Below, one piece after another: positions 3,306 through 27,258 of a stretch of DNA of 49,002 nucleotides (within the stretch, counting starts at the first letter, position 1; each line of letters begins with the position of its first letter). Origin of the DNA: Flavobacteriaceae bacterium (GTDB lineage: Bacteria > Patescibacteriota > Minisyncoccia > Phycocordibacterales > UBA1006); assembly GCA_047614005.1 (NCBI GenBank), contig JBLHIK010000002.1, positions 1 through 49,002 on the forward strand. Reading direction: 5' to 3'. Made by a program: the position numbers and the translations under genes. The notes under the pieces are model-generated. The model was not told where the DNA came from. It saw nothing but the letters and a program-made list of their open reading frames with translations, and searched no databases.

Positions 3306-3502
3306 AAAAAGGAGTATATCATAAAAGCATCACAACTTTCGTTTTTATGTTACAAAATATAATATATGCTTGTCAATTGACGAAATTCCTGCAACTGATA
3401 CCATTTTATATGTAGCTTGACTGAAACACATTTCACGAAAGATTTACTTCCGACGCTACTTTTTGTTGTGCAATATGCACTACAACATTCAATATAATAT
3501 TT

Positions 3503-5227: not shown

Positions 5228-5231
5228 ATAT

Positions 5232-5918: not shown

Positions 5919-5966
5919 GTTAAAAATATAACATAATATTATTGACTTATAAAATAAATATAGCAA

Positions 5967-6007
5967 AATACTCTATTTTTAAAAATATATTTTAAAAATA
6001 GAGTATT
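5967..6007. promoter_or_regulatory. 41-bp inverted repeat (18-bp perfect arms, 5-nt spacer); candidate operator in a divergent promoter region
   Basis: AATACTCTATTTTTAAAA-ATATA-TTTTAAAAATAGAGTATT lies between the divergent starts at 5918 (-) and 6026 (+). Confidence 0.5.
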
Positions 6008-6025
6008 ATCTTGTATACTTGATGT

Positions 6026-6790: not shown

Positions 6791-6842
6791 AAAACTTTCT
6801 CAGACATTTTTTATTCCAAATGATGTTAAGGAGAAATTTGAT

Positions 6843-6918
6843 TTATATTAACCCCCCCCTCTCAAAACATTTCTCAAATCAAAAAAACAACCCATCAGTA
6901 TTGATGGGTTGTTTTGTT
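6843..6918 (+). repeat. right direct repeat flanking the islet (59 nt identical at 6860-6918), preceded by a C8 homopolymer
   Basis: Identical to 4633-4691. TTATATTAA (6843-6851) matches 4607-4615. CCCCCCCC occupies 6852-6859. Confidence 0.9.
6886..6918. terminator. second copy of the bidirectional terminator hairpin
   Basis: Same 12-bp stem as 4659-4686. It lies immediately downstream of comM (-). Confidence 0.8.
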
Positions 6919-8467: not shown

Positions 8468-8470
8468 GTT

Positions 8471-8830
8471 TTATTCGTCGTTTCTATGAGCTATACAAGT
8501 AGATGCTGCAGGATTTGCAAGGAGTCTCTCTTCTTCTATTTCATTTTGACAAGTTTGACACTTTCCGTATGTTTCATTTTCTATTCGCAAGAGTGCTGCT
8601 TGAATATTTTCAAGGCGAGTTTCTAAAATAGCCGATACTGCATTTCTCTCATTGTACTCTTCGAAGTGACTTGCCATTTGGTTGCCATCAGAAATTTCTC
8701 CTCCATCGAGAGTTTCAGGAGTGGCGATGTAGTCGTCATTTTTTTTATCAAATGTTCCAACTCCTAGGAGTTCTTTTTCTAAATTTTCTTTTTCTTCAAT
8801 AAGAACTTTATGCTGTGTTTCGTATTTCAT
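8471..8830 (-). CDS. DksA/TraR-type C4 zinc-finger protein
   Basis: A coiled-coil N-terminal part followed by CQTCQNEIEEERLLANPAASTCIAH. Confidence 0.75.
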   Translation of the reverse strand: MKYETQHKVLIEEKENLEKELLGVGTFDKKNDDYIATPETLDGGEISDGNQMASHFEEYNERNAVSAILETRLENIQAALLRIENETYGKCQTCQNEIEEERLLANPAASTCIAHRNDE

Positions 8831-8859
8831 ATATAAAAATTATAACATGAAAAATAATT

Positions 8860-9795
8860 TTATTGTGAAAGTCTTCGTATTATTTCAGGTAATGGTTCTG
8901 AGTAAGGAGAGATATAAAGAGTGGTGCTATCGAGAAATGCATAAAAGAGAATCACCTCTCCTTCTTTATTTTTAAGACTACGTGCTGGAATATTTCGGAT
9001 AGTATCGTCTTTAAAATTTTCATTAAAAAGATATGCATTTTCTCCAAAAACATTTATGTCAAAAGTCACAAAGAAGTCGTTGAGCATTCCATTTTCCCAG
9101 TCGCGCAAGCTGTTGGTAAATTCAGTAAAGAATGAATTATTTTTTAAAAGTAAAAAAGGGTAGTCTCCACTCTTGTCGCCAAATACTCCAATGAGCATAT
9201 TTTTATCGAGAGCTTGAAGTGTATTTTCTGGTGTACTGAATTGTAATTTTCCTAGAAAGTCGCGAGTAGGAACAATGCTTCGTCCTACTGAACTTTTTTG
9301 TGTTGGTGCTATGTAGATGATGTTATTTCTGTATGGGCGAACTTCTTTGATTTTTCCAGAAAGAGCACGAGCAATATCATAACTTTGAAGAGAGTCTATC
9401 TGAAGTTCAACAGCTTCATCTATAGGAATAATAGCTCGCATATCCTGAGTCTGAGCAAGAGGAATACTTTCAGTTTCTAATTCTTTAATAAATAAGAAAC
9501 CAACACCCAATGTTGCTATTATGAGAATAATTGAAAAAATAATAAAAAGACGATTTTTCTTTGAGCTAGGGTTTTCATTGATGGTCTGTTCCTCTCTTCT
9601 TTTATGTTCGGCGACAGCGACGCTAATTATAGACCCTCTATTGTCTCTGAGGGCTCGAGCCATGTCTTCTGCATAAGTATGAGTATCTGTTTCAATCTGT
9701 GTTTCACTAGCACTTACTGTTTCAGGTGGAAGGGGTACAGCATCTTCTGTGTTTGTGACTGTAGAAGTGTTGTTTTTTGTTTCATGCTCTTTCAT
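8860..9795 (-). CDS. single-pass membrane protein, hypothetical
   Basis: One TM segment (LFIIFSIILIIATLGVGFLFI) follows an acidic N-terminal region. The ATG at 9795 is preferred. Confidence 0.55.
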   Translation of the reverse strand: MKEHETKNNTSTVTNTEDAVPLPPETVSASETQIETDTHTYAEDMARALRDNRGSIISVAVAEHKRREEQTINENPSSKKNRLFIIFSIILIIATLGVGFLFIKELETESIPLAQTQDMRAIIPIDEAVELQIDSLQSYDIARALSGKIKEVRPYRNNIIYIAPTQKSSVGRSIVPTRDFLGKLQFSTPENTLQALDKNMLIGVFGDKSGDYPFLLLKNNSFFTEFTNSLRDWENGMLNDFFVTFDINVFGENAYLFNENFKDDTIRNIPARSLKNKEGEVILFYAFLDSTTLYISPYSEPLPEIIRRLSQ

Positions 9796-10225
9796 TGCTT
9801 TATTGTACCTTGAATATACAAGTAAAAGCAAAGAATAAAAAATAAAAATTTTGTTTCATGCTATTAGGAAAAAAATATTTATAAATTTTAAAATGAGTAT
9901 GAAACCATGTTGCACTAAAAAATCATACAACCTCCTCACCAAAGAGGGATTTTCTTGAGATATATAGTTTGTTTTATATGCCTTGTTCTGTGCCTTTGCT
10001 ATATTAATGTAAAAACAACTATATATGAAACAGGTATGATAAGAGACATTTATAAAAGACATATATAAAAATATATAAAATATGTCTTTTATAAATGTCC
10101 TTTATGTTTTTGTCCTTTTGCTTTATGATAGCTTGAAAATGCAAATGTATTGATTATTTATATTATATAGAGTAAAGTAAAAGTAATTCGTTGTTTAAAT
10201 TAAATTTATATAAAATAAAAAACAT

Positions 10226-10357
10226 ATGGTAATTTTAGATATATCACAAGGAGACATGGGTATTATTAACCTGTGTGGACTTATTGCCTTTATATTCGGA
10301 GTGCTTATCATTTTTGGTGCTTCTGAAAGAAGATCAAGTAAAAAATCTAAAAAGTAA
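10226..10357 (+). CDS. possible 43-aa membrane peptide (MVILDISQGDMGIINLCGLIAFIFGVLIIFGASERRSSKKSKK)
   Basis: ATG-to-TAA frame with one TM segment and a basic tail, followed directly by a terminator hairpin. It is absent from the ORF track because it is too short. Confidence 0.3.
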   Translation: MVILDISQGDMGIINLCGLIAFIFGVLIIFGASERRSSKKSKK

Positions 10358-10368
10358 GTTTAACTCAA

Positions 10369-10405
10369 ATCCCCTACGCAAATTTGCACAGGGGATTATT
10401 TTTTA
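10369..10405. terminator. bidirectional terminator hairpin
   Basis: Stem ATCCCCT...AGGGGAT followed by a T-run. It lies between the small ORF (+) and the NYN gene (-). Confidence 0.7.
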
Positions 10406-10408
10406 TTA

Positions 10409-10954
10409 CTATTTCTTTGGAGCTGGTTTTCTTTTTCGTCGTGCTGAATTTCTTTTTGGTCCGATGAGGAACTTGTTTGGATCAGATGAGAGATCGAGGA
10501 AGTCGTCGCACGTCTCTCGAAGACTGCTCGAAGTTGATTGTCCAAAGGACGCCACTTCTACTTGTGTCATTGTTTGAAGATATTGAACAAGAGGTACAAA
10601 GTCTCCATCGCCTGTGACGAGCACGATAGCATCGAGACGGTTTGCATTTTTGATTGCGTCGACAGCTATACCTACATCCCAGTCTGCTTTCATATTTCCA
10701 TCTGCAAATATTTGTAAGTCTTTTGATTTTGTTTCTATTCCTATTTTTACTAATGCATCAAAAAAGTCACTCTCAGTTCCGTCCTCTGTACTGATAACAT
10801 ATGCAATAGCTCTGACGAGTTTTCTTCCCGCAACTACTTCTTTGAGTATTGCGTCAAAGTTTACTTTTCGTTGATAGAGATTTCTTCCAGAGTGGTAAAG
10901 GTTCTGTGCGTCTATAAATACTCCTACTCTCTGTTCTGTGTGTTTTATAATCAT
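10409..10954 (-). CDS. NYN-domain (LabA-like) protein
   Basis: VGVFIDAQNLYHS, LVTGDGDFVPLV, and a basic C-terminal tail. Confidence 0.85.
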   Translation of the reverse strand: MIIKHTEQRVGVFIDAQNLYHSGRNLYQRKVNFDAILKEVVAGRKLVRAIAYVISTEDGTESDFFDALVKIGIETKSKDLQIFADGNMKADWDVGIAVDAIKNANRLDAIVLVTGDGDFVPLVQYLQTMTQVEVASFGQSTSSSLRETCDDFLDLSSDPNKFLIGPKRNSARRKRKPAPKK

Positions 10955-11041
10955 ATGTATTAAGTATAGCAGGAAAGAAAAAAAGACGCAGAATATTTCC
11001 GCATCTTTTTTAAAATTCCTCTTTTTGTTTTTTCTAAAATT

Positions 11042-11623
11042 TTACTTTGCTTTCTTTAAAACTTTGTCGATGATTCCATACTTGAGTGCTTCTTCTGCTC
11101 CCATGTAGTAATCCCTTTCTACGTCCGTTTCTATTTGTGAAACTTTCTGACCAGTATTTTTTGCCAAAATTTTGTTGAGTTGTTCTCTGATCTTTATGAT
11201 TTGCCGCGCAGTAATCTCTATATCAGTTGCCTGACCTTGAGCACCTCCGAGTGGTTGATGTATCATTATTTCAGAGTTCGGTAGAGAAAATCTTTTCCCT
11301 TTTTCTCCAGCAGAGAGAAGTACCGCTCCCATAGATGCAGCAAGACCCACACATACTGTACTCACTTCTGGCTTGATGTGATTCATCGTGTCGAGAATAG
11401 CAAGACCGGCGGTCACATGTCCTCCTGGTGAATTGATATAAAATGAAATATCTTTTTTAGGATCTTCTGATTCAAGAAATAGAAGCTGAGCTACAATGCT
11501 GTTTGCTACTTGATCATTGATAGCTCCTCCGAGAAAAATAATTCGTTCTTTTAATAGGCGAGAATATATATCATATGCTCGCTCCCCTCCTGGTGTTTTT
11601 TCGATTACTGTTGGTATTAACAT
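11042..11623 (-). CDS. clpP: ATP-dependent Clp protease proteolytic subunit
   Basis: [19 protein letters not shown] (catalytic Ser) and MIHQPLGG (catalytic His). Confidence 0.95.
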
Positions 11624-11725
11624 ATCTCTATTTAATCATACTATTCACTTATGAGCAAAGTAGTATTTTCTAAGTGAAATAAAAAAATCAACATTATTCA
11701 ATGTTGATTTTTTTTAGCATACTTT

Positions 11726-12769
11726 TTATTGTATCTGTGAGAGAAACTCAAATACTTTTTCGTTGGTAAGCATCATTTCTACATATGCTTCTACTCGAGA
11801 TTTTTCTGCATCTTTGTGCTGTTCGAGTACGTGAGCAACTTCCTTTTCTAATACCTCTGCATCTGGCTTGAGGTTTTCTTCTGTTGCTATTTTGTTCAAG
11901 ATGAGCTGTATCTTAGATCGTTTTTCTGCATCTCCTCGCAATTCTTTCTGAATGTCTTCCTCAGTCTTTCCACTTTTTTCGAGGTAGTCTTCGTACTGCA
12001 TACCTGCTTTCTCAATATCCCCTTTCATTTGATTCATGAGAGTTTGGAGTTCTCCTTCTATAAGAATTTCAGGAAGGTTCATTTTTGAATCTTTAATAAT
12101 AGCGTCTATTATTTCCATTCTCCAAGTGTCCCCTACACGCCGTTCCTTATCTGCTTTTATGTTTTCTTTCATCTTTGCTGTAAAGTCAGCAACGTCCTTA
12201 AAGTCACCAAGGCCTTTTACAAAGTCATCAGTAAGAGGTTCGAGCTCTTTTTCTTCCTCACCTTCTTTTATTTCCTCTCCCTTGTTTTCTTCAGATCGTC
12301 GCATTTTTTGAACATTCTCGAGCATTTTTTGTATCTCTTCTTCTGATACTTCTTCCGCTTTGTTCTTTTCTATCTTTTTTGCAAGTTTTTTATAGTCAGC
12401 AAGTTCTATTTCAGGAAATGTAGCAGTCGTAAATGTAAATCCGAGAGGATTGTCTTCTGCTAATTTCGTGATCTGTACTTGTGGTTGTCCAATAGCTTGT
12501 ATCTTTTCATCACGCAGTACTTGTGTGTATACATGAGAAAGAGCAATATGTGCCATTTCTGTAAGGATTCGCCCTTCTCCTATTTGTTTTATAAGAACAT
12601 CTTCTGGAGCAGTTCCTTTTCGAAATCCGTCCACCTCAACATCTTTTCCAAGGTATTTTATTGCCTCATCTCGAAAAGACATAAAGTCTTCTACTTGTAG
12701 CTCTCCTTCAATATCGAGCACTGCATTGTCTTTTTTCGTAATTTTTGTTGTTATATTTAAATCTTTCAT
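11726..12769 (-). CDS. tig: trigger factor, short form without the FKBP-type PPIase domain
   Basis: The ribosome-binding signature GFRKGTAP sits in the N-domain, followed directly by the C-terminal arm domain. The ATG at 12769 (MKDLNITTK) is preferred; ATG 12826 is an alternative. Confidence 0.85.
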   Translation of the reverse strand: MKDLNITTKITKKDNAVLDIEGELQVEDFMSFRDEAIKYLGKDVEVDGFRKGTAPEDVLIKQIGEGRILTEMAHIALSHVYTQVLRDEKIQAIGQPQVQITKLAEDNPLGFTFTTATFPEIELADYKKLAKKIEKNKAEEVSEEEIQKMLENVQKMRRSEENKGEEIKEGEEEKELEPLTDDFVKGLGDFKDVADFTAKMKENIKADKERRVGDTWRMEIIDAIIKDSKMNLPEILIEGELQTLMNQMKGDIEKAGMQYEDYLEKSGKTEEDIQKELRGDAEKRSKIQLILNKIATEENLKPDAEVLEKEVAHVLEQHKDAEKSRVEAYVEMMLTNEKVFEFLSQIQ

Positions 12770-12828
12770 GTATGGCAGTCTATCAGACAGATGTATTGTG
12801 TCAAATAAATCTTTCTTTTGTCTCATCA

Positions 12829-12862
12829 AAAAAGCAGGGCTCCTGTAGGAGCCCTGCTTTTT
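12829..12862. terminator. bidirectional terminator hairpin
   Basis: Stem GCAGGGCTCC-TGTA-GGAGCCCTGC flanked by an A-run and a T-run. Confidence 0.8.
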
Positions 12863-12878
12863 ATATAAAAGGTAGTTA

Positions 12879-13133
12879 TTATTCTAGGTCAGAATCAATG
12901 TCGTTGAAGCTTGTTTCTTCAAGATCTGCCTCAATATCTTCTACTTCATCAGAGTTTGAGTTGGAAGTATCTTCATAGTCTTGAACTTGCTCGTCTTGAG
13001 TTGGTTCCACTATGATATTGCTTTGGTCCTTGTCCTTTCCAAGAAGTATGAAAAGAAGTGCAACAACTATAATAAGTACAATCCACATCATTCCACCACC
13101 ACCTTGTTTTTTTGTTTCGTTCATTTGTTCCAT
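12879..13133 (-). CDS. small membrane protein with an acidic C-terminal tail
   Basis: A GGGG stretch, then a TM segment (MMWIVLIIVVALLFILLG), then a D/E-rich tail. Confidence 0.45.
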   Translation of the reverse strand: MEQMNETKKQGGGGMMWIVLIIVVALLFILLGKDKDQSNIIVEPTQDEQVQDYEDTSNSNSDEVEDIEADLEETSFNDIDSDLE

Positions 13134-13316
13134 ATGTTTATATAATAGACTAATAATCTTATAACACACTATAGTATAACAAATAAAATGACATACTCAC
13201 CACAGATATGCACAATAATTTATTGAAAGAGAAAACGCGAAGGAATATTCCCACGCGTTTTCTTTATATACTTTTTGAATAAAAGTAAATTATTGCTCTA
13301 GTTCTGCACCAGCTTG

Positions 13317-13427
13317 TGCATCTTTCTGTGATGCTATTGATGCTTTAAGGGTAACAATAGCTTCTTTGAAACTTCTCGTGATGAAGCAATGTCTATTGAA
13401 AGACCAACACCAAGAGATATTTTTAGA
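13317..13427 (-). pseudogene. decayed duplicate of the 3' coding segment of the adjacent gene
   Basis: 13317-13373 is identical to 13474-13530. 13368-13427 matches 13568-13627 with 2 mismatches. A 43-nt segment between two GAAACT microhomologies is missing, which shifts the frame. Confidence 0.7.
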
Positions 13428-14208
13428 GCATCAGCATATGCTCCACATCTGATTCTCCTTTTACTTCTGCACTTGCATCTTTCTGTGATGCTATTGATGC
13501 TTTAAGGGTAACAATAGCTTCTTTGAAACTTGCATGAGATTTCTTTAGAAGCTCTTTTGCTTCTGTTGAAACTTCTCGCGCTGAAGCAATGTCTATTGAA
13601 AGACCAACACCAAGAGATATTTTTAGAAAATCATCAGATACTGCATCTGCTTCAATATCAGTAGTAAAGATAGACTTTAATTCTGATACTTTTATGTCAG
13701 CTTGGACAAGGAAGTCTTTTCCAGCATTAACATGTGCTTGAGCTTCTGCTGTAGCTACTCCTTGTTCTTCGAGTTTTAGTATTCGAGCTTCTATGCGACC
13801 CCCAATATGGTTCATTAGTCTTATAGCTGCTGTAAATCGTGCTGTGATACGAGTAGAAATGTTTGCTCGTAGTTCCGATCGTTTTTCAGAGAAAGCTGCA
13901 CTCTTTTCTTCTCGCTTTTCTTTATATTCGTCTCGCTTTGCACTGCTTTCTTGCATCTTTTCCTCTTTTTGTTCTTTATATTCGTCACGCTTTTCGAATC
14001 GTTCTTCGCGCTTTTTCATGTCTTCATTGTTGTTTTCTCGATCATTGTCTTGAAGATCAACAGTCGCTGTTACAGATACGCCTGCATTTACCTCAGCGTC
14101 ATTATATGCGTATGCAGATGATATGCTTGCAAAAAATGCAAACATAAGAGCTCCAAGAATGATAGAAGTATATTGTACATTTTTAATAGTAAGTATTTTT
14201 GTTTTCAT
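13423..14208 (-). CDS. secreted coiled-coil protein, hypothetical
   Basis: Signal peptide (IILGALMFAFFASISSAYA). The protein is K/E-rich with internal repeats (KRDEYKEQKEEK / KRDEYKEKREEK). Confidence 0.65.
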   Translation of the reverse strand: MKTKILTIKNVQYTSIILGALMFAFFASISSAYAYNDAEVNAGVSVTATVDLQDNDRENNNEDMKKREERFEKRDEYKEQKEEKMQESSAKRDEYKEKREEKSAAFSEKRSELRANISTRITARFTAAIRLMNHIGGRIEARILKLEEQGVATAEAQAHVNAGKDFLVQADIKVSELKSIFTTDIEADAVSDDFLKISLGVGLSIDIASAREVSTEAKELLKKSHASFKEAIVTLKASIASQKDASAEVKGESDVEHMLML

Positions 14209-14327
14209 AAAATTATTTGTTTATATTATGTATTCTACTAATAGTATAAGTATATCACAGTGTTTGTATCACTTACATATATAAAGACGCATATACACAG
14301 ATAATCTTACGAAAGAAGAAGAAAATA

Positions 14328-15266
14328 CTACTTCTCAGCTCCCTTTCCGTGAAATTTTTTGTGTATGTCTCGAAGATGCTTGTCGGTGAGGTGTGTATAT
14401 ATCTGAGTGGTGGCAATGTTGGCATGACCAAGCATCATTTGAACAGAGCGAATGTCTGCTCCATTGCGAAGAAGATCTGTCGCAAAGGAATGCCTTACTA
14501 CATGAGGAGTCACTTTTTTCGATATTCCTGCTACGGTGGCGTATTTTTTAATAATACGTTCAATAGAGCGAGGAGTGAGGCGAGTAATAGATGCGTTTTT
14601 GTTTTGAGAGCATGAGATGAAAAGTGCTTCCTCCATATCCTTTCGAACCTTGAGGTATGAGCGAAGTGAGGATTTTGCAATATCAGAGAGAAAGACCACG
14701 CGCACTTTCTCACCTTTTCCTCGTATAGAAAATTCATCGCGCGTCAGATCGAGGTCTCTATTGAGAGAACACAGCTCTGAAACACGCAATCCTGTAGAAA
14801 AAAGGAGTTCGAGTATGGATTTGTCTCGTAGTATTAAAAGAGTATTGTCTGTCTTTATAAGAGATGGAGCTTCGAGGAGTTTCAGAAGCTCATTTTCAGT
14901 AATGAGGTCAAGACTGCGTTCACCTACTTTCGCGAGCTCTATTTTATCTGGAGCAAGAGAAGATATGTTTTGTTTTGCAAGGTATTTGAGGAAACTACGA
15001 AGAGCAATGAGGTAGTAGTTCTGAGTGCGTTTCTTCATAGTTCCCCGCTCTTGTCCTTTTATGTGAGCACCTTTTTGTCTATTGAGATACAGGCGAAATT
15101 CACGCACAGTACTATATTCTATTTCTTTTGGTTCTTGAATGTTTGCAAATTGTAAAAAGCGAGAAAGGTATCGGTCGTAGTTTTCTATGGTTTTCATAGA
15201 CCTACCCTTCTCTATTTCAAGATATTCGAGAAATTTTATTTTGAGACTTTTAATATTGTGCGACAT
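14328..15266 (-). CDS. tyrosine recombinase XerC/XerD family
   Basis: N-terminal SAM-like domain, catalytic HVVRHSFATDLL and LGHANIATTQIYTH. The ATG at 15266 is preferred. Confidence 0.9.
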   Translation of the reverse strand: MSHNIKSLKIKFLEYLEIEKGRSMKTIENYDRYLSRFLQFANIQEPKEIEYSTVREFRLYLNRQKGAHIKGQERGTMKKRTQNYYLIALRSFLKYLAKQNISSLAPDKIELAKVGERSLDLITENELLKLLEAPSLIKTDNTLLILRDKSILELLFSTGLRVSELCSLNRDLDLTRDEFSIRGKGEKVRVVFLSDIAKSSLRSYLKVRKDMEEALFISCSQNKNASITRLTPRSIERIIKKYATVAGISKKVTPHVVRHSFATDLLRNGADIRSVQMMLGHANIATTQIYTHLTDKHLRDIHKKFHGKGAEK

Positions 15267-15335
15267 TATACTAAGTATATATGAGAATGATATAAAAAAA
15301 ACCCTCACTATTGCTAGAGAGGGAGTTTGTAAAGA

Positions 15336-15641
15336 TTACGGTATTGGTACTATAGATACTAGATATAATAATCCTGCCGTCACAGTAAATATACTTATAA
15401 TAACTCCTGCGACGATAGGATGCTTCATACCTGTGTCTCCTTTGAGATTTTTTAAGCAAGCAAGTCCAAAAAACAAATACGCTCCACTACAACCTAAAAA
15501 TATAGCTATATAGGATAAATTACATTGAGTTGACTCGCAACCTGTAGGTAATACACTCTGTTGTATAGCTATCGTTGCACACAGCATAACAATAGATACA
15601 GCAATACTAGCAAAACCTCCGATGATTCTTAAAATTTTCAT
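15336..15641 (-). CDS. small multi-pass membrane protein, hypothetical
   Basis: Three hydrophobic segments; no family recognised. Confidence 0.5.
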   Translation of the reverse strand: MKILRIIGGFASIAVSIVMLCATIAIQQSVLPTGCESTQCNLSYIAIFLGCSGAYLFFGLACLKNLKGDTGMKHPIVAGVIISIFTVTAGLLYLVSIVPIP

Positions 15642-15831
15642 AACTTCACTTTTTTATTTATTTTTGTAAAAGAGCAAAAAAGACTTTCTTCTTTTCTCTA
15701 TTTGATTTGTTAAAATTATAGCACAAAGAAAAAATAATGCAAGCTTTTTTGAAAAAAGAAAAAGAAAAGGAATACTAAGATTTTAAATCATTGAATTTCC
15801 AAATGATGAAAGAGATTTAAATACAAAAATT

Positions 15832-16281
15832 CTATAGTGGAAACTGTTTCCGCCACGCCTTTCTCCAGATAGGAAATAATAAAAAAATAAACACTCCAAC
15901 AAGAGCAGACCACGCTGATAATAAAGTAAAGGTAATGAGCCAGAGTATTTCTTTACTATAGTAGGCTTTTTTTAATTTATAAAAACATTCAACATTGTTT
16001 TCCTTGTTTTCTTTTGTATTTTTCTCTTCTGCTTCGTACATTCTTTCAGCTATAGATGCATGGACAAAAGTAAAATATACAGCACATAATGCTATCCAGT
16101 CAGCAATCCAAATAATAAAATCTTGATTACTAAGAGTTATGGTAGAAAAATCAAGAGAAAACCCTCCAGAGATAAAGCGTACTGTAAGAAGAATAAACAA
16201 AACAAAAAAGTTTTCTATATGGTAAGTCTTGCAATTAAACTTCTTTTTAAGTACATAGACTATGTTGGTTATAAATTTCAT
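15832..16281 (-). CDS. membrane protein, hypothetical
   Basis: Several TM segments. The track start at 16347 lies inside a perfect palindrome, so the internal ATG at 16281 is preferred. Confidence 0.45.
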   Translation of the reverse strand: MKFITNIVYVLKKKFNCKTYHIENFFVLFILLTVRFISGGFSLDFSTITLSNQDFIIWIADWIALCAVYFTFVHASIAERMYEAEEKNTKENKENNVECFYKLKKAYYSKEILWLITFTLLSAWSALVGVFIFLLFPIWRKAWRKQFPL

Positions 16282-16314
16282 AATTATATTAAGAATATCA
16301 TAATTGGAGATTTT

Positions 16315-16349
16315 GTGTGAGCGTTTTCGCGGAGCGAAAACGCTCACAC
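16315..16349. other. perfect 16-bp-stem GC-rich palindrome (GTGTGAGCGTTTTCGC-GGA-GCGAAAACGCTCACAC)
   Basis: Read directly from the sequence. No adjacent T-run on either strand. It sits between divergent genes, about 130 nt upstream of rpsO. Confidence 0.6.
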
Positions 16350-19251: not shown

Positions 19252-19347
19252 ATAAAAACCCTATAAGTTTGATCCGTACCCCATAAAGTAGACATGAAAT
19301 AAAAACATGTCTACTTTATGAGGTACGGATCAGTTTAGGGTTTTTAT
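19252..19347. other. 96-nt extended hairpin (about 37 paired bp in three helices, 9-nt loop) abutting tRNA-Gly
   Basis: The arms ATAAAAACCCTA, GATCCGTACC and CATAAAGTAGACATG pair with their complements at 19306-19347. Confidence 0.8.
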
Positions 19348-20363: not shown

Positions 20364-20397
20364 CAGAGCTAAGCTGTTTTTCTTTCACGTGAAACAC
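20364..20397 (-). repeat. 34-bp repeat element, copy A (perfect)
   Basis: Reverse complement of GTGTTTCACGTGAAAGAAAAACAGCTTAGCTCTG. It ends 2 nt from the yraN-like stop. Confidence 0.95.
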
Positions 20398-20399
20398 TT

Positions 20400-20870
20400 T
20401 TAGTCTTTTTCATTGAAGATATCCTTCATCTTAACAAATGCTCTGTTGTGTATTTTGTCATAAAAGATGGAAATGATCTTCATTTCCATATCTGTTTCTT
20501 TTGATAGATAATTTTCAAGGAAATACACCTGTACTGTTCTAATAATAGAATCTATTTTTCGCTGAGTGAGGTTTTCCTCTGGATTATAGCTTTTTTTGAG
20601 ATCTTCCTTGAGGATATTGATGGAAATACTATTTTCTTTCTTAAAATCACCTGTTTCACGTGAAAATTTAGGTGTATTTGTTTCAAAATTGATTGTTTTT
20701 ACTTCGCAAAAATACAAAATACCTTCTTTCTCGGCAACAATATCTATTTCACCACATTTTTTAGTATAATTTCTATCAACAATAGAAAAACCTCGTTTCA
20801 CAAGAAACCTTTCTGCTATTTTCTCACCTATTTCCCCTACTTTTTGTGTTTTTGATGTAAATACCTTCAT
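20400..20870 (-). CDS. YraN family (UPF0102) PD-(D/E)xK endonuclease-like protein
   Basis: GEIGEKIAERFLVKRGFSIVDRNYTKKCGEIDIVAEKEGILYFCEVKT matches the YraN core. An insertion of about 35 aa follows it. Confidence 0.75.
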   Translation of the reverse strand: MKVFTSKTQKVGEIGEKIAERFLVKRGFSIVDRNYTKKCGEIDIVAEKEGILYFCEVKTINFETNTPKFSRETGDFKKENSISINILKEDLKKSYNPEENLTQRKIDSIIRTVQVYFLENYLSKETDMEMKIISIFYDKIHNRAFVKMKDIFNEKD

Positions 20871-20879
20871 AATCTATAA

Positions 20880-20896
20880 TTTCTTTCACGTGAAAC
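20880..20896 (-). repeat. repeat element, copy B (palindromic core only)
   Basis: TTTCTTTCACGTGAAAC lies between the RAYT stop and the yraN-like start. Confidence 0.7.
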
Positions 20897-20903
20897 CCTT
20901 ATA

Positions 20904-21491
20904 TTAATCAATAAGCATTTTATCAAAATATTCCCTTTCTACTCGCTTTTCTCTGATTTCTTTTGCTGTAGTAAGTATTTCTTGAAGAAAATCTTCTTTT
21001 GGTATTATGTGATATGTCTTATCCCTGTCACAGATACCTTGTTGATATTCTGTAGAATATTCCTCAAGTGCTGAGCGATATGTATCGTCTTCTGAAATAC
21101 CATGAACTACATGATTAAGTGTTACATATGAAACAAGATATGAAAAATATGTATCTTTGTCTATATATTTAGATTTATATGGCCCCTCGAAGAGTGAGCC
21201 TTTTCGATCGTACTTTTTGTTAAAATAATTAGTATATGATGTACCTAGTTTATGCATAAAACCTTCCACTCCTTTTTCAATAAGAGGAGATAATATGAGA
21301 TGAAAATGATTAAGTAAAAGGCAAAATGAAATAATAGAGACTAATTTTTCATTGTTGGCGCCCTTGTTTAGTTGTTTAAGGGATGAAAGAAATCGATCAA
21401 AATCTTTTGTATCTACAAAAACGATTCTTTTGTCTACTCCGCGATTATAAATGTGATAGCATTCATCTATTTCGTACGTAATGTTTCTCAT
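20904..21491 (-). CDS. IS200-like Y1 (HUH) transposase of the REP-associated tyrosine transposase (RAYT, COG1943) type
   Basis: YHIYNRG, the HUH motif LLNHFHLIL, GSLFEGPYKSKYI, and the catalytic Tyr helix YLVSYVTLNHVVHG. Confidence 0.8.
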   Translation of the reverse strand: MRNITYEIDECYHIYNRGVDKRIVFVDTKDFDRFLSSLKQLNKGANNEKLVSIISFCLLLNHFHLILSPLIEKGVEGFMHKLGTSYTNYFNKKYDRKGSLFEGPYKSKYIDKDTYFSYLVSYVTLNHVVHGISEDDTYRSALEEYSTEYQQGICDRDKTYHIIPKEDFLQEILTTAKEIREKRVEREYFDKMLID

Positions 21492-21506
21492 GAAACAATT
21501 ATAGCA

Positions 21507-21540
21507 CAGAGCTAAGCTGTTTTTCTTTCACGTGAAACAC
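21507..21540 (-). repeat. 34-bp repeat element, copy C (perfect)
   Basis: Identical to copy A, 16 nt upstream of the RAYT ATG. Confidence 0.95.
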
Positions 21541-21756
21541 AAAATGGGGAAAACCATGTGTAAAAGACATAATTATGGGGATAAGTGTCCTTTATGAATG
21601 TCTTTTATAAATGTCCTTTATAAACATATTCCACAGGTTTATGCACAGTTATGTCTTTTATAGTACACAGGTTAAATACTAGCAGCTTAAAAATTGAAAT
21701 ATTTTTTGGTATGTAAGTCTTGTTTTCCAAAGCTTGTAGTGAAAGATATCAGAATA

Positions 21757-21788
21757 TTAAAAATACCACAATAATGTGGTATTTTTAA
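21757..21788. terminator. hairpin downstream of tRNA-Arg
   Basis: Stem AAAAATACCACA-ATAA-TGTGGTATTTTT (12 bp). Confidence 0.65.
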
Positions 21789-21798
21789 TATAGTTATG

Positions 21799-21870
21799 TG
21801 CACCTGCCAGGACTCGAACCTGGAACGACGGTTCCGAAGACCGTTGTGATATCCATTTCACCACAAGTGC
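21799..21870 (-). tRNA. tRNA-Arg (anticodon UCG)
   Basis: Acceptor GCACTTG/CAGGTGC, anticodon stem ACGGT/ACCGT with loop CTTCGGA, T-arm CCAGG-TTCGAGT-CCTGG. Confidence 0.9.
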
Positions 21871-21991
21871 ATGGCTGCAGTATATAGGTATTGAATAATA
21901 AAAACAAGTATTTATCAATATAATAATCAGGCTATTTATCTTGATGTATTGCAAAAATAATAAAAATAACATATACTCTTTCTGTTCCATT

Positions 21992-22062
21992 GCGGGTGTA
22001 GTTTAGTGGTAGAATACCTGCCTTCCAAGCAGGGGACGGGAGTTCGATTCTCCCCACCCGCA
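21992..22062 (+). tRNA. tRNA-Gly (anticodon UCC)
   Basis: Acceptor GCGGGTG/CACCCGC, anticodon stem CCTGC/GCAGG with loop CTTCCAA, T-arm GGGAG-TTCGATT-CTCCC. Confidence 0.9.
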
Positions 22063-22127
22063 CTAATATATTTGACGTATACTAAAATAGAGAAAAAGTA
22101 ATATCATTACTCTTCTTTTTATATCAT

Positions 22128-23633
22128 ATGAATTCTAAAGCAATACTTAAGCTTATACCCAAAAACGTATATAAAACCCTTTCTATACTAGAAGAGAGAG
22201 GTTTTGAGGCGTATCTTGTGGGTGGATGTGTTCGAGATTTAATACTCCAAAGAGCTCCAAATGATTGGGATATTACTACAAATGCGAACCCAGAAGAAAT
22301 ACAAAGTTGTTTTGAAAAAACAGTCTATGAAAACAATTTTGGAACAGTTGCTGTTGTTTATGAAGATGAAGAAGATATATCATGTCGTGTTATTGAAATT
22401 ACTCCATATCGAATTGATGGTATATATACTGACGGACGTAGGCCAGACAGTGTTTCTTTTGGAAAAAGCCTTGAAGAAGATCTTGCAAGAAGAGATTTTA
22501 GGATAAATGCTATTGCGCTTGATGTTAAAGGAATATTGCACGATCCGTTTAATGGACAAGAGGATATAAAAAATAGACTTATTCAAACGGTTGGAAATCC
22601 AAAAGACAGGTTTAATGAAGATGTTTTGAGGGTTTTTAGAGCTGTTCGTTTTTCTGCTCAATTAGGATTTTTAGTTTCATATGAAACTAAGGAAGCAATA
22701 ACAGACCTTGTTTTACATAAGAATTTGACTGTTTCACATGAAATCTCTTTGAGAAACGTATCTCCTGAGCGTATTCGCGACGAATTCTTAAAATTAATAG
22801 ACGCTCCCTTTGCAAAAGAAGCTCTTATTTTTTCACGTGAAACAGGTATTCTAGATGAAATAATACCTGAATTTAAAGATAGTTTTGAATGTGAGCAAAA
22901 TGGTGATCATATTTATGATGTTTGGAATCATTTGATAAATTCACTTGAGCATGCGACAAAGAAAGAGTACCCTCTTTTTATTAAAATATCAGCACTATTT
23001 CATGACATAGGAAAGCCAGCGACACGCAGATATGATTCATCTAAAAAAGACTATACTTTTTACGGACATGAGGTTGTAGGAGCTCAGATGACAAAGAAAA
23101 TACTTACTCGACTTAAATTTCCAAGAGAAATAAGTGAAAAGATCGTCAAGCTTGTACGTTGGCATATGTTTTTTTCTGACACAGATCAAATTAGCATATC
23201 AGCAGTAAGAAGGATGATAAATAATGTTGGTCACGATCTTATTTGGAGCCTGATGGATGTTCGTATTTGTGATCGCATAGGAATGGGGCGCCCTAAAGAA
23301 GATCCATATAGGCTCAGAAAATACCACGCAATGATAGAGCAAGCTCTGCGTGACCCCATTTCAGTAAAACAATTAGCAATAAATGGAGATATTATGATCG
23401 CAGAGCTCGGCATGAAGCCAGGAAAAAGAATGGGGTGGATTTTGCAATCCTTATTAGAAGAAGTACTAGAAGATCCAGAAAAAAACACAAGAAAATATCT
23501 CGAAGAATATATACAAGAACTCGCCACTCTTTCTGACGAGGAATTAAAGAAAAAAGCAGAAAAAGGAAAAGAAAAACAACAAGAAGCTGAGAAAGATGAG
23601 TTAAAAAAGATACGAAGAAAACACAAAGTATAA
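22128..23633 (+). CDS. cca: CCA-adding enzyme / tRNA nucleotidyltransferase with HD domain
   Basis: GGCVRDLIL, DWDITT, RDFRINA, the HD motif LFHDIGKP, and a K/E-rich C-terminal tail. Confidence 0.9.
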   Translation: MNSKAILKLIPKNVYKTLSILEERGFEAYLVGGCVRDLILQRAPNDWDITTNANPEEIQSCFEKTVYENNFGTVAVVYEDEEDISCRVIEITPYRIDGIYTDGRRPDSVSFGKSLEEDLARRDFRINAIALDVKGILHDPFNGQEDIKNRLIQTVGNPKDRFNEDVLRVFRAVRFSAQLGFLVSYETKEAITDLVLHKNLTVSHEISLRNVSPERIRDEFLKLIDAPFAKEALIFSRETGILDEIIPEFKDSFECEQNGDHIYDVWNHLINSLEHATKKEYPLFIKISALFHDIGKPATRRYDSSKKDYTFYGHEVVGAQMTKKILTRLKFPREISEKIVKLVRWHMFFSDTDQISISAVRRMINNVGHDLIWSLMDVRICDRIGMGRPKEDPYRLRKYHAMIEQALRDPISVKQLAINGDIMIAELGMKPGKRMGWILQSLLEEVLEDPEKNTRKYLEEYIQELATLSDEELKKKAEKGKEKQQEAEKDELKKIRRKHKV

Positions 23634-23636
23634 AAA

Positions 23637-23670
23637 GTGTTTCACGTGAAAGAAAAACAGCTTAGCTCTG
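23637..23670 (+). repeat. 34-bp repeat element, copy D (perfect)
   Basis: It starts 4 nt after the cca stop. Its 3' end encodes the last two codons and the stop of xth on the other strand. Confidence 0.95.
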
Positions 23671-24438
23671 GTCTAATTCAATGAGTAGTGGGCAATGATC
23701 AGAGCCTTCTTGAAGCGTTTCATGTGAAATGCTTTTAATGCAGGGAAGAAAGGCTGGACTCATAAAGAAATAATCAATTCTCCATCCCACATTTCTTTCA
23801 CGTGCTCGTGTTTTCACGTCCCAATAGGTATAAGAGTCTATTTTGTTGGGATATAAATGTCGAAATACATCAGTCCATCCATGATGCACAATCTCATCTA
23901 TCCAAGCTCTTTCTTCTGGTAAAAAACCTGTATTTTTTTCATTTTCTTTTGGTCGAGCAATATCTATTTCAGTATGTGCTGTATTTATATCTCCACAAAA
24001 GATTATTTTTGGATATTTTTTCTTTAATTCTTCAATGTATTCTAAAAATAAATCATAAAAGGCAAGTTTGTATGAAAGGCGATCTGGGCCACCACCTCCG
24101 TTTGGAAAATAGCAGGTAATTAAGATAAAGTCTTTGAAGTAAGCAGTAAGCATTCGTCCTTGAGTGTCAAAATCAGGATTATCTGGAAAACCACCTTTTA
24201 CCTCGAGTGGTTCTTCTTTTGAATATATGGCTACTCCGCTATAGCCTTTACGTTCTTGAGATGACCAAAAGTAACTGAAATAACCCTCAGGAGAAACAAC
24301 TTCTTCAGAAAGTTGTTCTTTTTCAGCTTTTATTTCCTGAAAACAAATTATATCAGCATTGTATGAAAATATTTCCTTTAAATTACCCTTTCTTTCAATA
24401 GCGCGCAGGCCGTTTACATTCCAGTTGAGAATTTTCAT
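23662..24438 (-). CDS. xth: exodeoxyribonuclease III
   Basis: LNWNVNGLRA, CFQE, and SDHCPL near the C-terminus. Confidence 0.9.
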   Translation of the reverse strand: MKILNWNVNGLRAIERKGNLKEIFSYNADIICFQEIKAEKEQLSEEVVSPEGYFSYFWSSQERKGYSGVAIYSKEEPLEVKGGFPDNPDFDTQGRMLTAYFKDFILITCYFPNGGGGPDRLSYKLAFYDLFLEYIEELKKKYPKIIFCGDINTAHTEIDIARPKENEKNTGFLPEERAWIDEIVHHGWTDVFRHLYPNKIDSYTYWDVKTRARERNVGWRIDYFFMSPAFLPCIKSISHETLQEGSDHCPLLIELDQS

Positions 24439-24456
24439 ATAGTCTTAAGTATAACA

Positions 24457-24470
24457 ATTTCACGTGAAAC
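24457..24470 (+). repeat. repeat element, copy E (core only: ATTTCACGTGAAAC)
   Basis: Lies 19-32 nt upstream of the xth ATG. Confidence 0.6.
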
Positions 24471-24490
24471 ATACAAATAAACTTGAAAAA

Positions 24491-24524
24491 GTGTTTCACG
24501 TGAAAGAAAAACAGCTTAGCTCTG
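24491..24524 (+). repeat. 34-bp repeat element, copy F (perfect)
   Basis: Identical 34-mer. It overlaps the last codons and stop of the methyltransferase at 24516. Confidence 0.95.
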
Positions 24525-25169
24525 GACTTTCTGAAGAAGATAGAGGCTATAAGTTGCGGGAGTTCCAGCACAAGGTATTGCAAGGGAATCTTCTTTTGCA
24601 ATTTTAAAATCAGGAAATAGTTTTAAAATGTCTTCTTTTGAAAAAAAATTATAAGGAATATCAAAGAAATTTATAGTTTTATTTTCTTGCTCTTTTGGAT
24701 ATTTTCCTTTCCACTCCTTTGTTTCATCTGAAAGTGTAATTAATAGAAAAAAGCCATTATTTTTAACTACCCGTGTTACTTCTCGTGAATATTGCGTATG
24801 ATCTTGTCTTGGAAGATGTTGCAAGAGACCAATATCTGTAGCAATATCAAAGCTGGTATCTACAAAAGGTATATCAAGAGCATCTCCTACTAAAAAACGT
24901 GCTCGTTCTGAAATATCACGCTCTTTAAGCTCTTCATTTGCTTTTTTTACTATTTCTTCAATATAATCAATGCCAATAACACGGAATTTTTGTCTCGCAA
25001 GAGATACAAGCCATGTTCCTCTACCTGATCCAATATCAAGGACAAGGCTCTCTTCAGGGAAAGAAGATAGAAAGGAAAGAGCTTTTTTCTCATAAGGAAG
25101 ATGTGTCCATGTATCAGAACCACTCATATATGCTGCTTTCCAGAAAGATTGTAGGTTTTGTTCTTTCAT
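24516..25169 (-). CDS. class I SAM-dependent methyltransferase
   Basis: Motif I VLDIGSGRGTW, then IGIDY, then GFFLLITL. Confidence 0.85.
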   Translation of the reverse strand: MKEQNLQSFWKAAYMSGSDTWTHLPYEKKALSFLSSFPEESLVLDIGSGRGTWLVSLARQKFRVIGIDYIEEIVKKANEELKERDISERARFLVGDALDIPFVDTSFDIATDIGLLQHLPRQDHTQYSREVTRVVKNNGFFLLITLSDETKEWKGKYPKEQENKTINFFDIPYNFFSKEDILKLFPDFKIAKEDSLAIPCAGTPATYSLYLLQKVQS

Positions 25170-25251
25170 TTATATTAATTATAGCAGGAGCATATCAAAA
25201 AACCTATATTATTTGACAGGAAATATAAAAAACACATTTCATAGAAAAAAC

Positions 25252-25282
25252 GTTTCACGTGAAAGAAAAACAGCTTAGCTCT
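25252..25282 (+). repeat. repeat element, copy G (31 nt, near-perfect)
   Basis: GTTTCACGTGAAAGAAAAACAGCTTAGCTCT, 83-113 nt upstream of the methyltransferase ATG. Confidence 0.9.
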
Positions 25283-25313
25283 AAAAAACACCCTATTAAA
25301 AGGGTGTTTTTTT
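25283..25313. terminator. bidirectional terminator downstream of ppa
   Basis: Stem ACACCCT-ATTAAA-AGGGTGT flanked by an A-run and a T-run. Confidence 0.8.
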
Positions 25314-25357
25314 AAAATCAGTTTTTTGGACTATATAAATGTCTTGTCGAGAGAGTT

Positions 25358-25900
25358 TTACTTTTGTCCAAATTGGTCTTCGTAGAGTTTAATAGATTTT
25401 TCTACTGCTTCAAGAGCTTCTTTTTTGCCACTAATTCCAGGGATAGAGACAATGTCTTTCTCACCCTTTTTTAATTCTTTGTATGTTTCAAAGAAATGCT
25501 TGTATTCTTTAAGATTATGAGTGTTTATATCCTCAAGATCCTGTACATCGTCCCATCTCTTGTCTTCTGCCACAACAGCAATGATCTTGTAGTCTGATTC
25601 ACCACCGTCAATCATCTCCATAACTGCCACAGGGCGAACTCGAACCAAGATACCTGTTGAAAGAGGAAAGGTCGAAAGAACCATTACATCGAGAGCATCT
25701 CCGTCATCCCACAGTGTTTGTGGCACAAAACCATAATCAAAAGGATATGGCGCAGAAGAGTAGTTTGCTCTATCAAGAGCTATGAGTCCCGTTTCCTTGT
25801 CTATCTCATATTTATTAGGAGAACCTGCTGGTATTTCAATAATAACATTAAGTTCGTGAGGTATATTGTCTCCACGAGAGACATCGTGCCATAAATTCAT
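25358..25900 (-). CDS. ppa: inorganic pyrophosphatase (family I)
   Basis: EIPAGSPNKYEIDKE, YGFVPQT and DGDALDVMVL. Confidence 0.95.
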   Translation of the reverse strand: MNLWHDVSRGDNIPHELNVIIEIPAGSPNKYEIDKETGLIALDRANYSSAPYPFDYGFVPQTLWDDGDALDVMVLSTFPLSTGILVRVRPVAVMEMIDGGESDYKIIAVVAEDKRWDDVQDLEDINTHNLKEYKHFFETYKELKKGEKDIVSIPGISGKKEALEAVEKSIKLYEDQFGQK

Positions 25901-25923
25901 AGTAATATAGTGCTAATTAGTAA

Positions 25924-27258
25924 TTATTCTTCTGATGGTGCAACCACTTTTTCAGTTTCCACTGCTTTTGTTTCTTCTGCTTCCTCTTCCTTTTCTTCAG
26001 ATTCTTTAGAAGCAGATAGTTCTGCAACAGAATCTTCCTTTGCAGTTTCTTCAGGAGTAGGTTTTTCTTCAGCGGATTTCTTATTTACTTCTTCAGTAGA
26101 AGATATCTCTTCACTGGAAGCTTCTTTTTCAGCTTCAGCTTCCTTGAGAGCAACAGCTTCAGGTGAGATAACGTTGATTCTCCAGCCTGTAAGGCGTGCT
26201 GCAAGTCGAACATTTTGTCCTCCTTTACCAATAGCAAGAGAAAGCTGATCAGATGCAACCTCAACATGGGCAATATGCTCATTTTCGTCTATTTCAATAG
26301 CTAAAACTTGAGCTGGAGAAAGTGCATTTGCAATAAACTGCGCTACTTCTTCTTCCCATTCAATAATATCTATCTTTTCTCCGTTTAGTTCACTCATAAC
26401 AGTAACCACTCGTATACCTTTTTGACCAACACATGAACCGATAGGATCCACATTTTCATCATGAGAAACAACAGCTATTTTAGAACGACTTCCTGGTTCT
26501 CGTGCAATAGCCTTGATCTCCACTACTCCATCTTGTATTTCAGGTGCTTCAATAGCAAAAAGTTCACGCAAAAAGTCAGAATGAGTACGAGATACTTTTA
26601 AAGAAACACCTTTTCCACCTTCTTCTACTTCATAAAGGTATGCTTTTATACGTCCACCTTGTCGAAAATTTTCGCCAGGTATTTGTTCTTCTCGAGGTAA
26701 AAAGGCTGTTGCACGTGAAATATCAATGAAAACATTACCTTTTTCTATCTTTTGAACTGTTCCATTGATGATTTCACCTTCACGTCCTTCATATTCATCG
26801 AGGACACTTTCTCGTTCTGCTTCTCTGATGCGTTGCAAAATAACCTGTTTTGCAGTTTGTGCTGCTATTCGTCCAAAATCTTCTTCTGGCTCAAGCTCAA
26901 AAGCTATTTCTCCCCCTGCTTCAACATCAGTTTTGATTTTTTTAGCATCATCAAGAAAGATATGTGCTTCTTCATTGTATCGCACACGCAAGTCACCATC
27001 TTCAAGGAGAGGTGAATCCTCATCTTCGCCAATAACATATACATCTTCTGGTGAAACGATTTTTTTCACTTGCTCGTATACCACTGTTCCTGTATTGAAA
27101 TCAAGCTTTGCTCGTACTATTTGTCCTTTTTTTCCATAATCTTTTTTGTACGCTGCTGCCAATGACTGTTCTATAGCGTCTACTATCTTTTCTTTTGGAA
27201 TCTTGCGCTCATCTTCTACTGCTTCGAGGGCAACATTCAATGCTTTTATATCTAACAT
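25924..27258 (-). CDS. nusA: transcription termination/antitermination factor NusA with an acidic S/E-rich C-terminal tail
   Basis: N-terminal domain, S1 domain (GTVQKIEKGNVFIDI) and two KH domains (GQKGIRVVTV, IGKGGQNVRLAARLTGWRINV). The ATG at 27258 is preferred over the TTG at 27312. Confidence 0.9.
   Translation of the reverse strand: MLDIKALNVALEAVEDERKIPKEKIVDAIEQSLAAAYKKDYGKKGQIVRAKLDFNTGTVVYEQVKKIVSPEDVYVIGEDEDSPLLEDGDLRVRYNEEAHIFLDDAKKIKTDVEAGGEIAFELEPEEDFGRIAAQTAKQVILQRIREAERESVLDEYEGREGEIINGTVQKIEKGNVFIDISRATAFLPREEQIPGENFRQGGRIKAYLYEVEEGGKGVSLKVSRTHSDFLRELFAIEAPEIQDGVVEIKAIAREPGSRSKIAVVSHDENVDPIGSCVGQKGIRVVTVMSELNGEKIDIIEWEEEVAQFIANALSPAQVLAIEIDENEHIAHVEVASDQLSLAIGKGGQNVRLAARLTGWRINVISPEAVALKEAEAEKEASSEEISSTEEVNKKSAEEKPTPEETAKEDSVAELSASKESEEKEEEAEETKAVETEKVVAPSEE

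Follow-up and report, generated by a model that had tools for sequence, protein, structure and literature searches.

The 49,002-nt stretch analysed here (contig JBLHIK010000002.1 of assembly GCA_047614005.1, the window in what follows) carries a family of palindrome-cored 34-bp repeats distributed around a gene for a RAYT-like Y1/HUH transposase, and an initial annotation had interpreted the two together as a REPtron, that is, as repeats mobilised by the neighbouring RAYT protein. These repeats very probably have a different nature: their core is, from its sequence, a parS site (the predicted binding site of ParB), and the region from 20.4 to 26.7 kb would constitute a centromere-like cluster at or next to a replication origin of Patescibacteria. 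We propose this identity because the core is identical to parS at 15 of 16 positions, its copies are clustered, some of them lie inside genes, the cluster is conserved in syntenic loci of relatives where no RAYT gene was seen among the loci examined, DnaA boxes are found at these loci, and the repeat does not fold as a hairpin. What we describe is chiefly a known kind of feature, the parS centromere cluster, in a little-studied phylum; the tail of the repeat and the RAYT gene embedded in the cluster retain a modest residual interest.

A scan of the window recovered the 34-mer GTGTTTCACGTGAAAGAAAAACAGCTTAGCTCTG in four exact copies (20364-20397 and 21507-21540 on the minus strand, 23637-23670 and 24491-24524 on the plus strand) and in a fifth copy with 3 mismatches (25250-25283, plus strand), in which the identical stretch is 25252-25282 (31/34). 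No match was obtained in 100 shuffled sequences. Identity reaches 38 nt (AAAA plus the 34-mer) in three copies, and 43 nt are common to copies A and B at 91%. We also confirmed two core-only copies, at 20884-20895 and 24458-24469. The inventory of the initial annotation (four 34-mers, a 31-nt near-copy and two core-only copies) is therefore correct in its positions and well beyond chance, and a copy is indeed present in every protein-gene spacer between 20.2 and 25.3 kb. The five units are the following:

20364..20401, minus strand: unit A, AAAA plus the 34-mer, made of the parS-like core TGTTTCACGTGAAAGA (15/16) and the tail AAAAACAGCTTAGCTCTG.
21507..21540, minus strand: unit B, the 34-mer directly upstream of the RAYT promoter, its tail abutting the extended -10 box.
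23633..23670, plus strand: unit C, occupying the 28 nt that separate the CCA gene from the ExoIII gene, which is convergent to it.
24487..24524, plus strand: unit D, between the ExoIII and methyltransferase genes.
25252..25282, plus strand: unit E, a 31-nt copy with a 14/16 parS-like core, followed directly by a bidirectional terminator hairpin (25283-25312).

Unit A begins in the TAA stop codon of YraN, and 138 nt separate it from the downstream ATG of the APH kinase gene. The CTTAGC of unit C is the source of the TAA stop codon of ExoIII, a protein ending in ...DQS, and unit D supplies the stop codon of the methyltransferase, which ends in ...VQS; both proteins thus end in QS, and ExoIII is 1-2 residues longer than its modal homologue. 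All units lie within 5 kb, with none in the other 44 kb of the window, and an exact 22-mer of the repeat had no match in genome-contig or metagenome-contig collections. An assembly artefact was ruled out, since every copy has unique flanks and an independent Logan contig (L001, SRR28417443), which corresponds exactly to window positions 20372-21536, breaks at the repeats; it ends inside copies A and B, as expected if the 31-mers there are multi-copy in the sample.

The core TGTTTCACGTGAAAGA shares 15 of 16 bases with the parS consensus TGTTTCACGTGAAACA / tGTTNCACGTGAAACa, which has been tabulated for Firmicutes, Actinobacteria, Proteobacteria and others (PMC7022226 Table 1). Comparison of all 16-mers of the window with parS TGTTNCACGTGAAACA, allowing up to 2 mismatches, gave 11 sites (five at 15/16 and six at 14/16), all of them within 20381-26722. 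The 43 kb outside this 6.3-kb cluster contain no such site and a single match with 3 mismatches, at 31122. Likewise, the 12-mer core with at most 1 mismatch was found 12 times against 0.25 expected, and the 14-bp palindrome GTTTCACGTGAAAC with at most 2 mismatches occurs at 15 sites, all within 20382-26721, which fall in the YraN, RAYT, CCA-enzyme, ExoIII and NusA coding sequences and in spacers. The initial annotation had treated the core copies as spacer elements and missed those inside genes, at 20654 (YraN/UPF0102), 22831 and 22732 (CCA enzyme), 23718 (ExoIII) and 26709 (NusA). Four of the 11 parS-like sites are in genes (one of them across the RAYT start codon), one is between convergent genes and six are in other spacers. 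The sites located outside the five units, together with the weaker ones of the CCA gene, are listed below without strand:

20652..20667: parS-like 14/16, inside the YraN/UPF0102 gene, translated FSRET.
20882..20897: parS-like 14/16, between the RAYT and YraN genes.
21482..21497: parS-like 14/16, spanning the RAYT start codon.
22674 (14-mer, 2 mismatches) and 22730 (13/16): weaker sites of the CCA-enzyme gene.
22829..22844: parS-like 15/16, inside the CCA-enzyme gene, translated FSRETG.
24456..24471: parS-like 14/16, 18 nt upstream of the ExoIII ATG.
26707..26722: parS-like 14/16, inside nusA, the outermost member of the cluster.

The 24 nt at 20880-20903 match unit A at 92% and have no tail. 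The in-gene sites are all read in one frame, xTT TCA CRT GAA ACx, which avoids the internal TGA and is translated as (F/I/V)-S-(R/H/Y)-E-T. Since the site of the CCA gene ('FSRETGILDEIIPEF') is part of a conserved stretch of the protein, it is not an insertion. The presence of sites in conserved coding sequence (CCA, YraN, NusA) and between convergent genes fits a chromosomal site that is flexible in position, rather than an operator or an inserted element.

Two sets of loci allowed us to ask whether the core follows the RAYT gene or the chromosomal locus. The first was built from an alignment of 31 RAYT homologues and comprises 79 loci, mostly of Patescibacteria (1.13 Mb); not one parS-like 16-mer with up to 2 mismatches was found in it. 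The second comprises 80 loci around homologues of the CCA-adding enzyme (49-56% identity, L081-L160), and parS-like sites were present in 71 of them. The 120 sites with at most 2 mismatches fall without exception in the interval from -3 to +2.5 kb around the CCA start, with none in the remaining flanks, whereas ~0.2 would be expected by chance. The perfect TGTTTCACGTGAAACA occurs in L109, L112, L120 (three times), L134 and L140. The order tRNA-Pro/YraN/tRNA-Gly/tRNA-Arg/CCA is kept in the relatives, and no RAYT gene was seen at the CCA locus in the loci examined. Within the CCA gene, sites are found at residues 304, 320, 185 and 333 in relatives and at residues 185, 204 and 237 in the window. 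The positions of the in-gene sites thus turn over while the gene remains a host, which suggests that selection acts on the presence of sites in the zone and not on their position. The closest homologues retrieved are 48% (RAYT), 56% (CCA) and 66% (ExoIII) identical, and no close relative that would show the presence or absence of single units was found.

The same zone may lie at or next to a replication origin. In the 80 CCA loci, perfect DnaA boxes (TTATCCACA) peak between -2.5 and 0 kb and between +1.5 and +2 kb of the CCA gene, reaching 0.69 per locus in one 500-nt bin and being near zero elsewhere. Examples of DnaA boxes together with parS are found at 6560-6640 of L118 and 9255-9300 of L107. 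The tRNA-Pro/YraN/tRNA-Gly/tRNA-Arg/CCA zone is therefore the probable oriC locus of the lineage. The corresponding features of the window are:

20400..20870, minus strand: YraN/UPF0102 gene, which in relatives is conserved in synteny with the parS cluster.
21541..21797, no strand: intergenic candidate oriC segment, 257 nt between unit B and tRNA-Arg.
22128..23633, plus strand: CCA-adding enzyme gene, anchor of the conserved parS/DnaA-box locus in relatives.

The candidate oriC spacer contains two DnaA boxes matching at 8/9 positions (21576-21584 and 21639-21647), and the orientation of the 34-mers switches across it. On a larger scale, 16 of the 18 genes to the left of the cluster (150-16347) are on the minus strand and 17 of the 20 to its right (27447-47564) are on the plus strand; this divergence between ~16 and 27 kb is what is expected around a replication origin. 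We also noted in the candidate origin spacer a 13-mer, ATGTCYTTTATAA, in 4-5 copies (21558-21663), which recurs three times (an inverted pair plus one) at 10037-10105, within the 9832-10408 spacer; similar motifs, AAAGACAT/ATGTCTTTT, are found beside parS sites in L120 and L107. This 13-mer may be bound by a further protein associated with the origin.

If the cluster is a centromere, ParB dimers would load at each of the ~11 sites (15/16 or 14/16) and spread over the surrounding kilobases, and the complex formed would then serve origin segregation and SMC loading. The cluster would be ancestral to the lineage, anchored on the tRNA-Pro/YraN/tRNA-Gly/tRNA-Arg/CCA-enzyme block, and the RAYT-like gene would be a later insertion into it, as would probably be the APH kinase gene. 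The window resembles known chromosomal parS loci of ParABS systems in having the same 16-bp palindrome at several sites with 0-2 mismatches, tightly clustered and partly inside genes, beside DnaA boxes or the origin, and variable in number and position between relatives. Clusters of parS close to the origin and in variable number are a known pattern (PMC7022226, PMC7333895): Caulobacter crescentus has 5 sites, Streptomyces coelicolor 21 and Myxococcus xanthus 22, and the Hyphomonas site is TGTTTCACGTGAAACA (PMC7022226 Table 1, PMC7333895). The window differs from these loci in several respects, however, since five of its sites form part of an identical unit of 31-38 nt that includes a non-palindromic tail of 18 nt, the density is very high (11 sites in 6.3 kb), a transposase-like gene lies inside the cluster, and ParB binding is predicted only. 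The 43-bp repeats of F sopC, an iterated plasmid centromere, each contain a 16-bp SopB site, and they provide another parallel, namely a partition site held in a longer repeat unit, the remainder of which is conserved though unneeded for binding; sopC, however, is a tandem array on a plasmid, whereas the units of the window are dispersed on a chromosome, one per spacer.

Several observations weigh against a parS cluster at an origin. None of the sites of the window is a perfect 16/16 match, and the four best ones have a common C-to-G change at position 15, which we take to be a specificity position in the ParB/Noc family. Neither parA nor parB was found in the window or in the 162 fetched loci, and neither dnaA nor parAB within 10 kb of the CCA gene in relatives, a further difference from the known chromosomal parS loci; ParB is thus proposed as the binder from the sequence of the sites. 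The search for ParB, which combined a motif with a tblastn run of a Spo0J-like probe, gave nothing in 2 Mb of loci, an uninformative result as only ~2 hits were expected, and the sole ParB motif match (in L016) turned out to be a histidine kinase. Moreover, the window holds only two DnaA boxes, both 8/9, lacks dnaA and shows no clean switch in GC skew, so that its proximity to an origin is deduced largely from the relatives and from the gene-strand bias. Finally, ParB binding does not account for the perfect conservation of the 18-nt tail.

Taking the repeats as a REPtron, as initially proposed, appears unlikely to us. According to this explanation, the 34-mer would be a miniature element of REP type, which the adjacent RAYT protein would recognise in single-stranded form and copy into nearby spacers; in a weaker version, the parS core would belong to the mobilised unit as a pre-existing component or as a passenger. 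The gene itself and its promoter are as follows:

20904..21491, minus strand: RAYT-like Y1/HUH transposase gene, 195 aa.
21498..21506, minus strand: extended -10 box of the RAYT gene, TGCTATAAT, 6 nt before the ATG.

The gene encodes an apparently intact RAYT-type Y1 transposase, in agreement with the initial annotation: the HUH motif (NHFHLIL) and the catalytic-Tyr motif (YVTLNHVVHG) are both present, and the protein passes the Pfam Y1_Tnp model with 30.3 bits for a cut-off of 23. It does not reach the threshold of the RayT model of NCBIfam, however (REP_Tyr_transpos, its sole match there, 27.2 bits for a cut-off of 80), so the model check supports the Y1 transposase assignment and falls short of the RayT equivalog. 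No PDB sequence was matched when the RAYT alignment was used for a profile search. In the alignment of 31 homologues, the protein of the window keeps all family-invariant residues, whereas a variable insert is missing.

This missing insert is linked to a feature of the homologues for which we found no description in the literature. In 55 of the 79 RAYT-homologue loci, we observed at least two copies of a perfect, locus-specific hairpin, mostly ACTTGGnnGC-loop-GCnnCCAAGT, with stems that are identical within a genome and differ between genomes. It occupies four positions: 40-65 nt upstream of the ATG, where it is immediately followed by GnTAnAAT; nucleotides 165-200 of the gene, in the insert that the window gene lacks; nucleotides 430-467; and just past the stop codon. 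The two in-gene hairpins are in frame and translated (xLGSxAPKS-like peptides). Example loci, from the set L002-L080 and L161, are L028 (9961-10645), L036 (3300-4061) and L060 (1661-2376). The folding energy of these hairpins is -8 to -10 kcal/mol (z about -5), whereas the 38-mer of the window folds at -2.2 kcal/mol (z = 0.3) on either strand, no better than shuffled sequences. No hairpin of the family type was found in the window, and the four-position architecture, defined here from the homologues, is not that of the window gene. The window nevertheless resembles this Patescibacteria RAYT family in the protein itself, in the upstream layout (element, TGnTATAAT, 6-9 nt, ATGAGA) and in having an element just after the stop codon as well; it differs from it in lacking the perfect hairpins with 8-10-bp stems of all four positions, including the two in-frame ones.

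Some data do favour a role of the RAYT protein in the spread of the units. Unit B and the partial unit flank the RAYT gene at two of the positions where homologues have their cognate hairpin, and the tail resembles the centre of the family hairpin. In several homologue loci (L029, L036, L060) the cognate hairpin is also found in nearby spacers, which makes local spread a trait of the family. In two genes the native stop codon has given way to that of unit C or D, as happens on insertion. Seen from the putative origin at 21.5-21.8 kb, all five units have the same polarity, with A and B to the left on the minus strand and C, D and E to the right on the plus strand, an arrangement with a chance of about 1 in 16, and transposition of the IS200/IS605 single-strand type, as Ton-Hoang et al. 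reportedly described in 2010, is biased to the lagging-strand template.

Against these points stand the failure of the unit to fold, the same defective stem in all copies, which implies that the unit was copied after decay of the hairpin, and the absence from the repeat unit of both the GTAG/CGTC tetranucleotide and the ACTTGG..CCAAGT foot. A conserved GTAG or CGTC at one end is a criterion for REPs (PMC3733652), and the lack of a GTAG head had been correctly pointed out in the initial annotation as a difference from classical REPs. The claim that copies bracket the RAYT gene holds for the upstream side, with the full unit B, and does not hold downstream, where there is only a tail-less partial unit; in addition, A and B are direct and not inverted repeats. 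The units share with REP/REPIN elements and their RAYT (TnpA_REP) genes, the REPtrons (PMC5581495, PMC3733652, PMC3479197), a size of ~35 nt, an extragenic location at gene ends, a palindrome and the vicinity of a single-copy Y1/HUH transposase gene. They depart from them by the absence of a stable stem-loop and of GTAG/CGTC, by the direct flanking copies, by their confinement to 5 kb of the window and by a protein below the RayT equivalog cut-off. The core has the sequence of parS, is absent from the 79 RAYT loci and clusters at the syntenic locus of distant relatives, where no RAYT gene was seen in the loci examined. What persists of the REPtron proposal is a young, locally copied repeat unit next to a gene of the Y1/HUH RAYT type; mobilisation of the repeats as REPs by this protein is not supported, and the RAYT-like gene is most likely a bystander.

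The tail of the unit requires an explanation of its own. The 18 nt of AAAAACAGCTTAGCTCTG do not vary between copies, are never seen apart from the core in the window and are not found beside the parS sites of relatives, which indicates that the unit was duplicated as a whole. In RAYT homologues, the region upstream of the gene reads hairpin..CCAAGT, GCTATAAT, 6-9 nt and ATGAGA, and in the window it reads ..CAGCTTAGCTCTG (..GCTCTG before the box), TGCTATAAT, TGTTTC and ATGAGA, so that the tail is aligned with the 3' arm of the hairpin; TGCTATAAT is at the position homologous to the -10 box that follows the family hairpin. Moreover, the centre of the tail, AGCTTAGCT, is also the hairpin centre of L041, L002, L037 and of the closest homologue, L161. 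On these sequence similarities, the simplest reading is that the tail would be a decayed relic of the RAYT upstream hairpin fused to a neighbouring parS site. Relic and site would have formed one unit of 31-38 nt, which would then have been copied into four more gene spacers, each time adding a parS site.

The copying could have been achieved by the RAYT protein, if a single-strand transposase beside oriC copied the unit composed of parS and the relic of its own hairpin into successive spacers with one replication polarity. We regard this as quite doubtful, and gene conversion or duplication, with retention of the units for the parS sites they add, fits the data equally well as single-strand transposition of the RAYT type. 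If the RAYT protein had done the copying, an enzyme of mobile elements would have built up a multi-site centromere, and there would be a concrete mechanism by which parS sites multiply and stay clustered, an open question in PMC7333895. The identical tail shows that parS sites can multiply through the copying of a longer unit, which bears on the evolution of the number and clustering of parS.

Composite repeats were also seen in two relatives. In L118 (5632-5675 and 6360-6402) and L082 (4354-4481), a parS-like site and, directly after it, a GC-rich hairpin form a composite that is repeated (ACCAAGGTCGGTCCTTGGT; TACCTAGGGTTACCCTAGGTA); the two units of L118 lie on either side of the YraN gene, like units A and B of the window. 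A recurrent architecture of parS plus hairpin was rejected, as it is restricted to these two of the 80 loci and is lacking in the other 78.

The initial annotation had also considered the palindrome as the operator of a local transcription factor, a shared operator or promoter module co-regulating the genes of the block, which now seems highly improbable. It is true that start codons (YraN, RAYT, ExoIII, methyltransferase) are found 19-90 nt downstream of several copies and that a -10-like hexamer comes after unit A and unit B at a constant offset. However, the fixed promoter-proximal distance that would have favoured an operator is not observed: start codons are anywhere from ~19 to 162 nt away, unit C is located between two convergent stop codons, and four sites with at most 2 mismatches, as well as further weaker ones, are inside genes. 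A promoter scan revealed no enrichment (21 hits against 30.6 expected). In relatives, the positions of the sites turn over, even within the CCA gene, and the sites co-occur with DnaA boxes; the core of the 34-mer, moreover, matches a pan-bacterial parS at 15/16 positions. The idea of a protein-binding module was thus closer to the truth than that of a mobilised repeat, with ParB and not a transcription factor as the proposed binder. Two further candidates were discarded: a terminator, because the unit folds weakly and a terminator scan gave no hits on the units, and an integron-like cassette (gene plus 3' repeat), because the orientation of the unit relative to the adjacent gene differs between the left and the right sets.

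A palindrome-cored repeat beside a transposase-like gene can thus be, in all probability, a chromosome centromere and not a mobile element. As far as the searchable literature shows, this would be the first description of a parS cluster and probable origin locus in a Patescibacteria lineage; we found nothing relevant on parS/ParB or RAYT in the Candidate Phyla Radiation (CPR)/Patescibacteria. Such a locus would be of use for locating origins and estimating replication rates in uncultured Patescibacteria.

The gene block that hosts the cluster consists of tRNA-Pro, tRNA-Gly(gcc), the APH-type kinase (minus strand), YraN/UPF0102 (minus), the RAYT-like Y1 transposase (minus), tRNA-Arg (minus), tRNA-Gly(tcc), the CCA-adding enzyme (plus), ExoIII (minus), an S-adenosylmethionine (SAM) methyltransferase (minus), an inorganic pyrophosphatase (minus) and NusA (minus). 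Between 18.5 and 27.5 kb, only the four tRNAs exceeded the Rfam thresholds. The remainder of the window carries housekeeping and type IV pilus genes typical of Patescibacteria, and the best homologues of the window proteins are Patescibacteria proteins.

Finally, we noted three features elsewhere in the window. A perfect 59-nt direct repeat with a terminator hairpin (4633-4691 and 6860-6918) flanks a 2.2-kb segment of three genes, which has a GC content of 27-30% compared with 36-39% nearby and has the look of an inserted islet. In the spacer that separates tRNA-Gly(gcc) from the 3' end of the APH kinase gene, a 27-nt inverted repeat (19270-19332, 96% complementary, 9-nt spacer) gave only sub-threshold, microRNA-like matches in Rfam, corresponding to a long hairpin. 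The gene of a 261-aa secreted protein (13423-14208, minus strand) and the DNA downstream of it (13317-13422) contain internal direct repeats within 13317-14009, namely 58 nt at 100%, 80 nt at 90% and 54-nt units.

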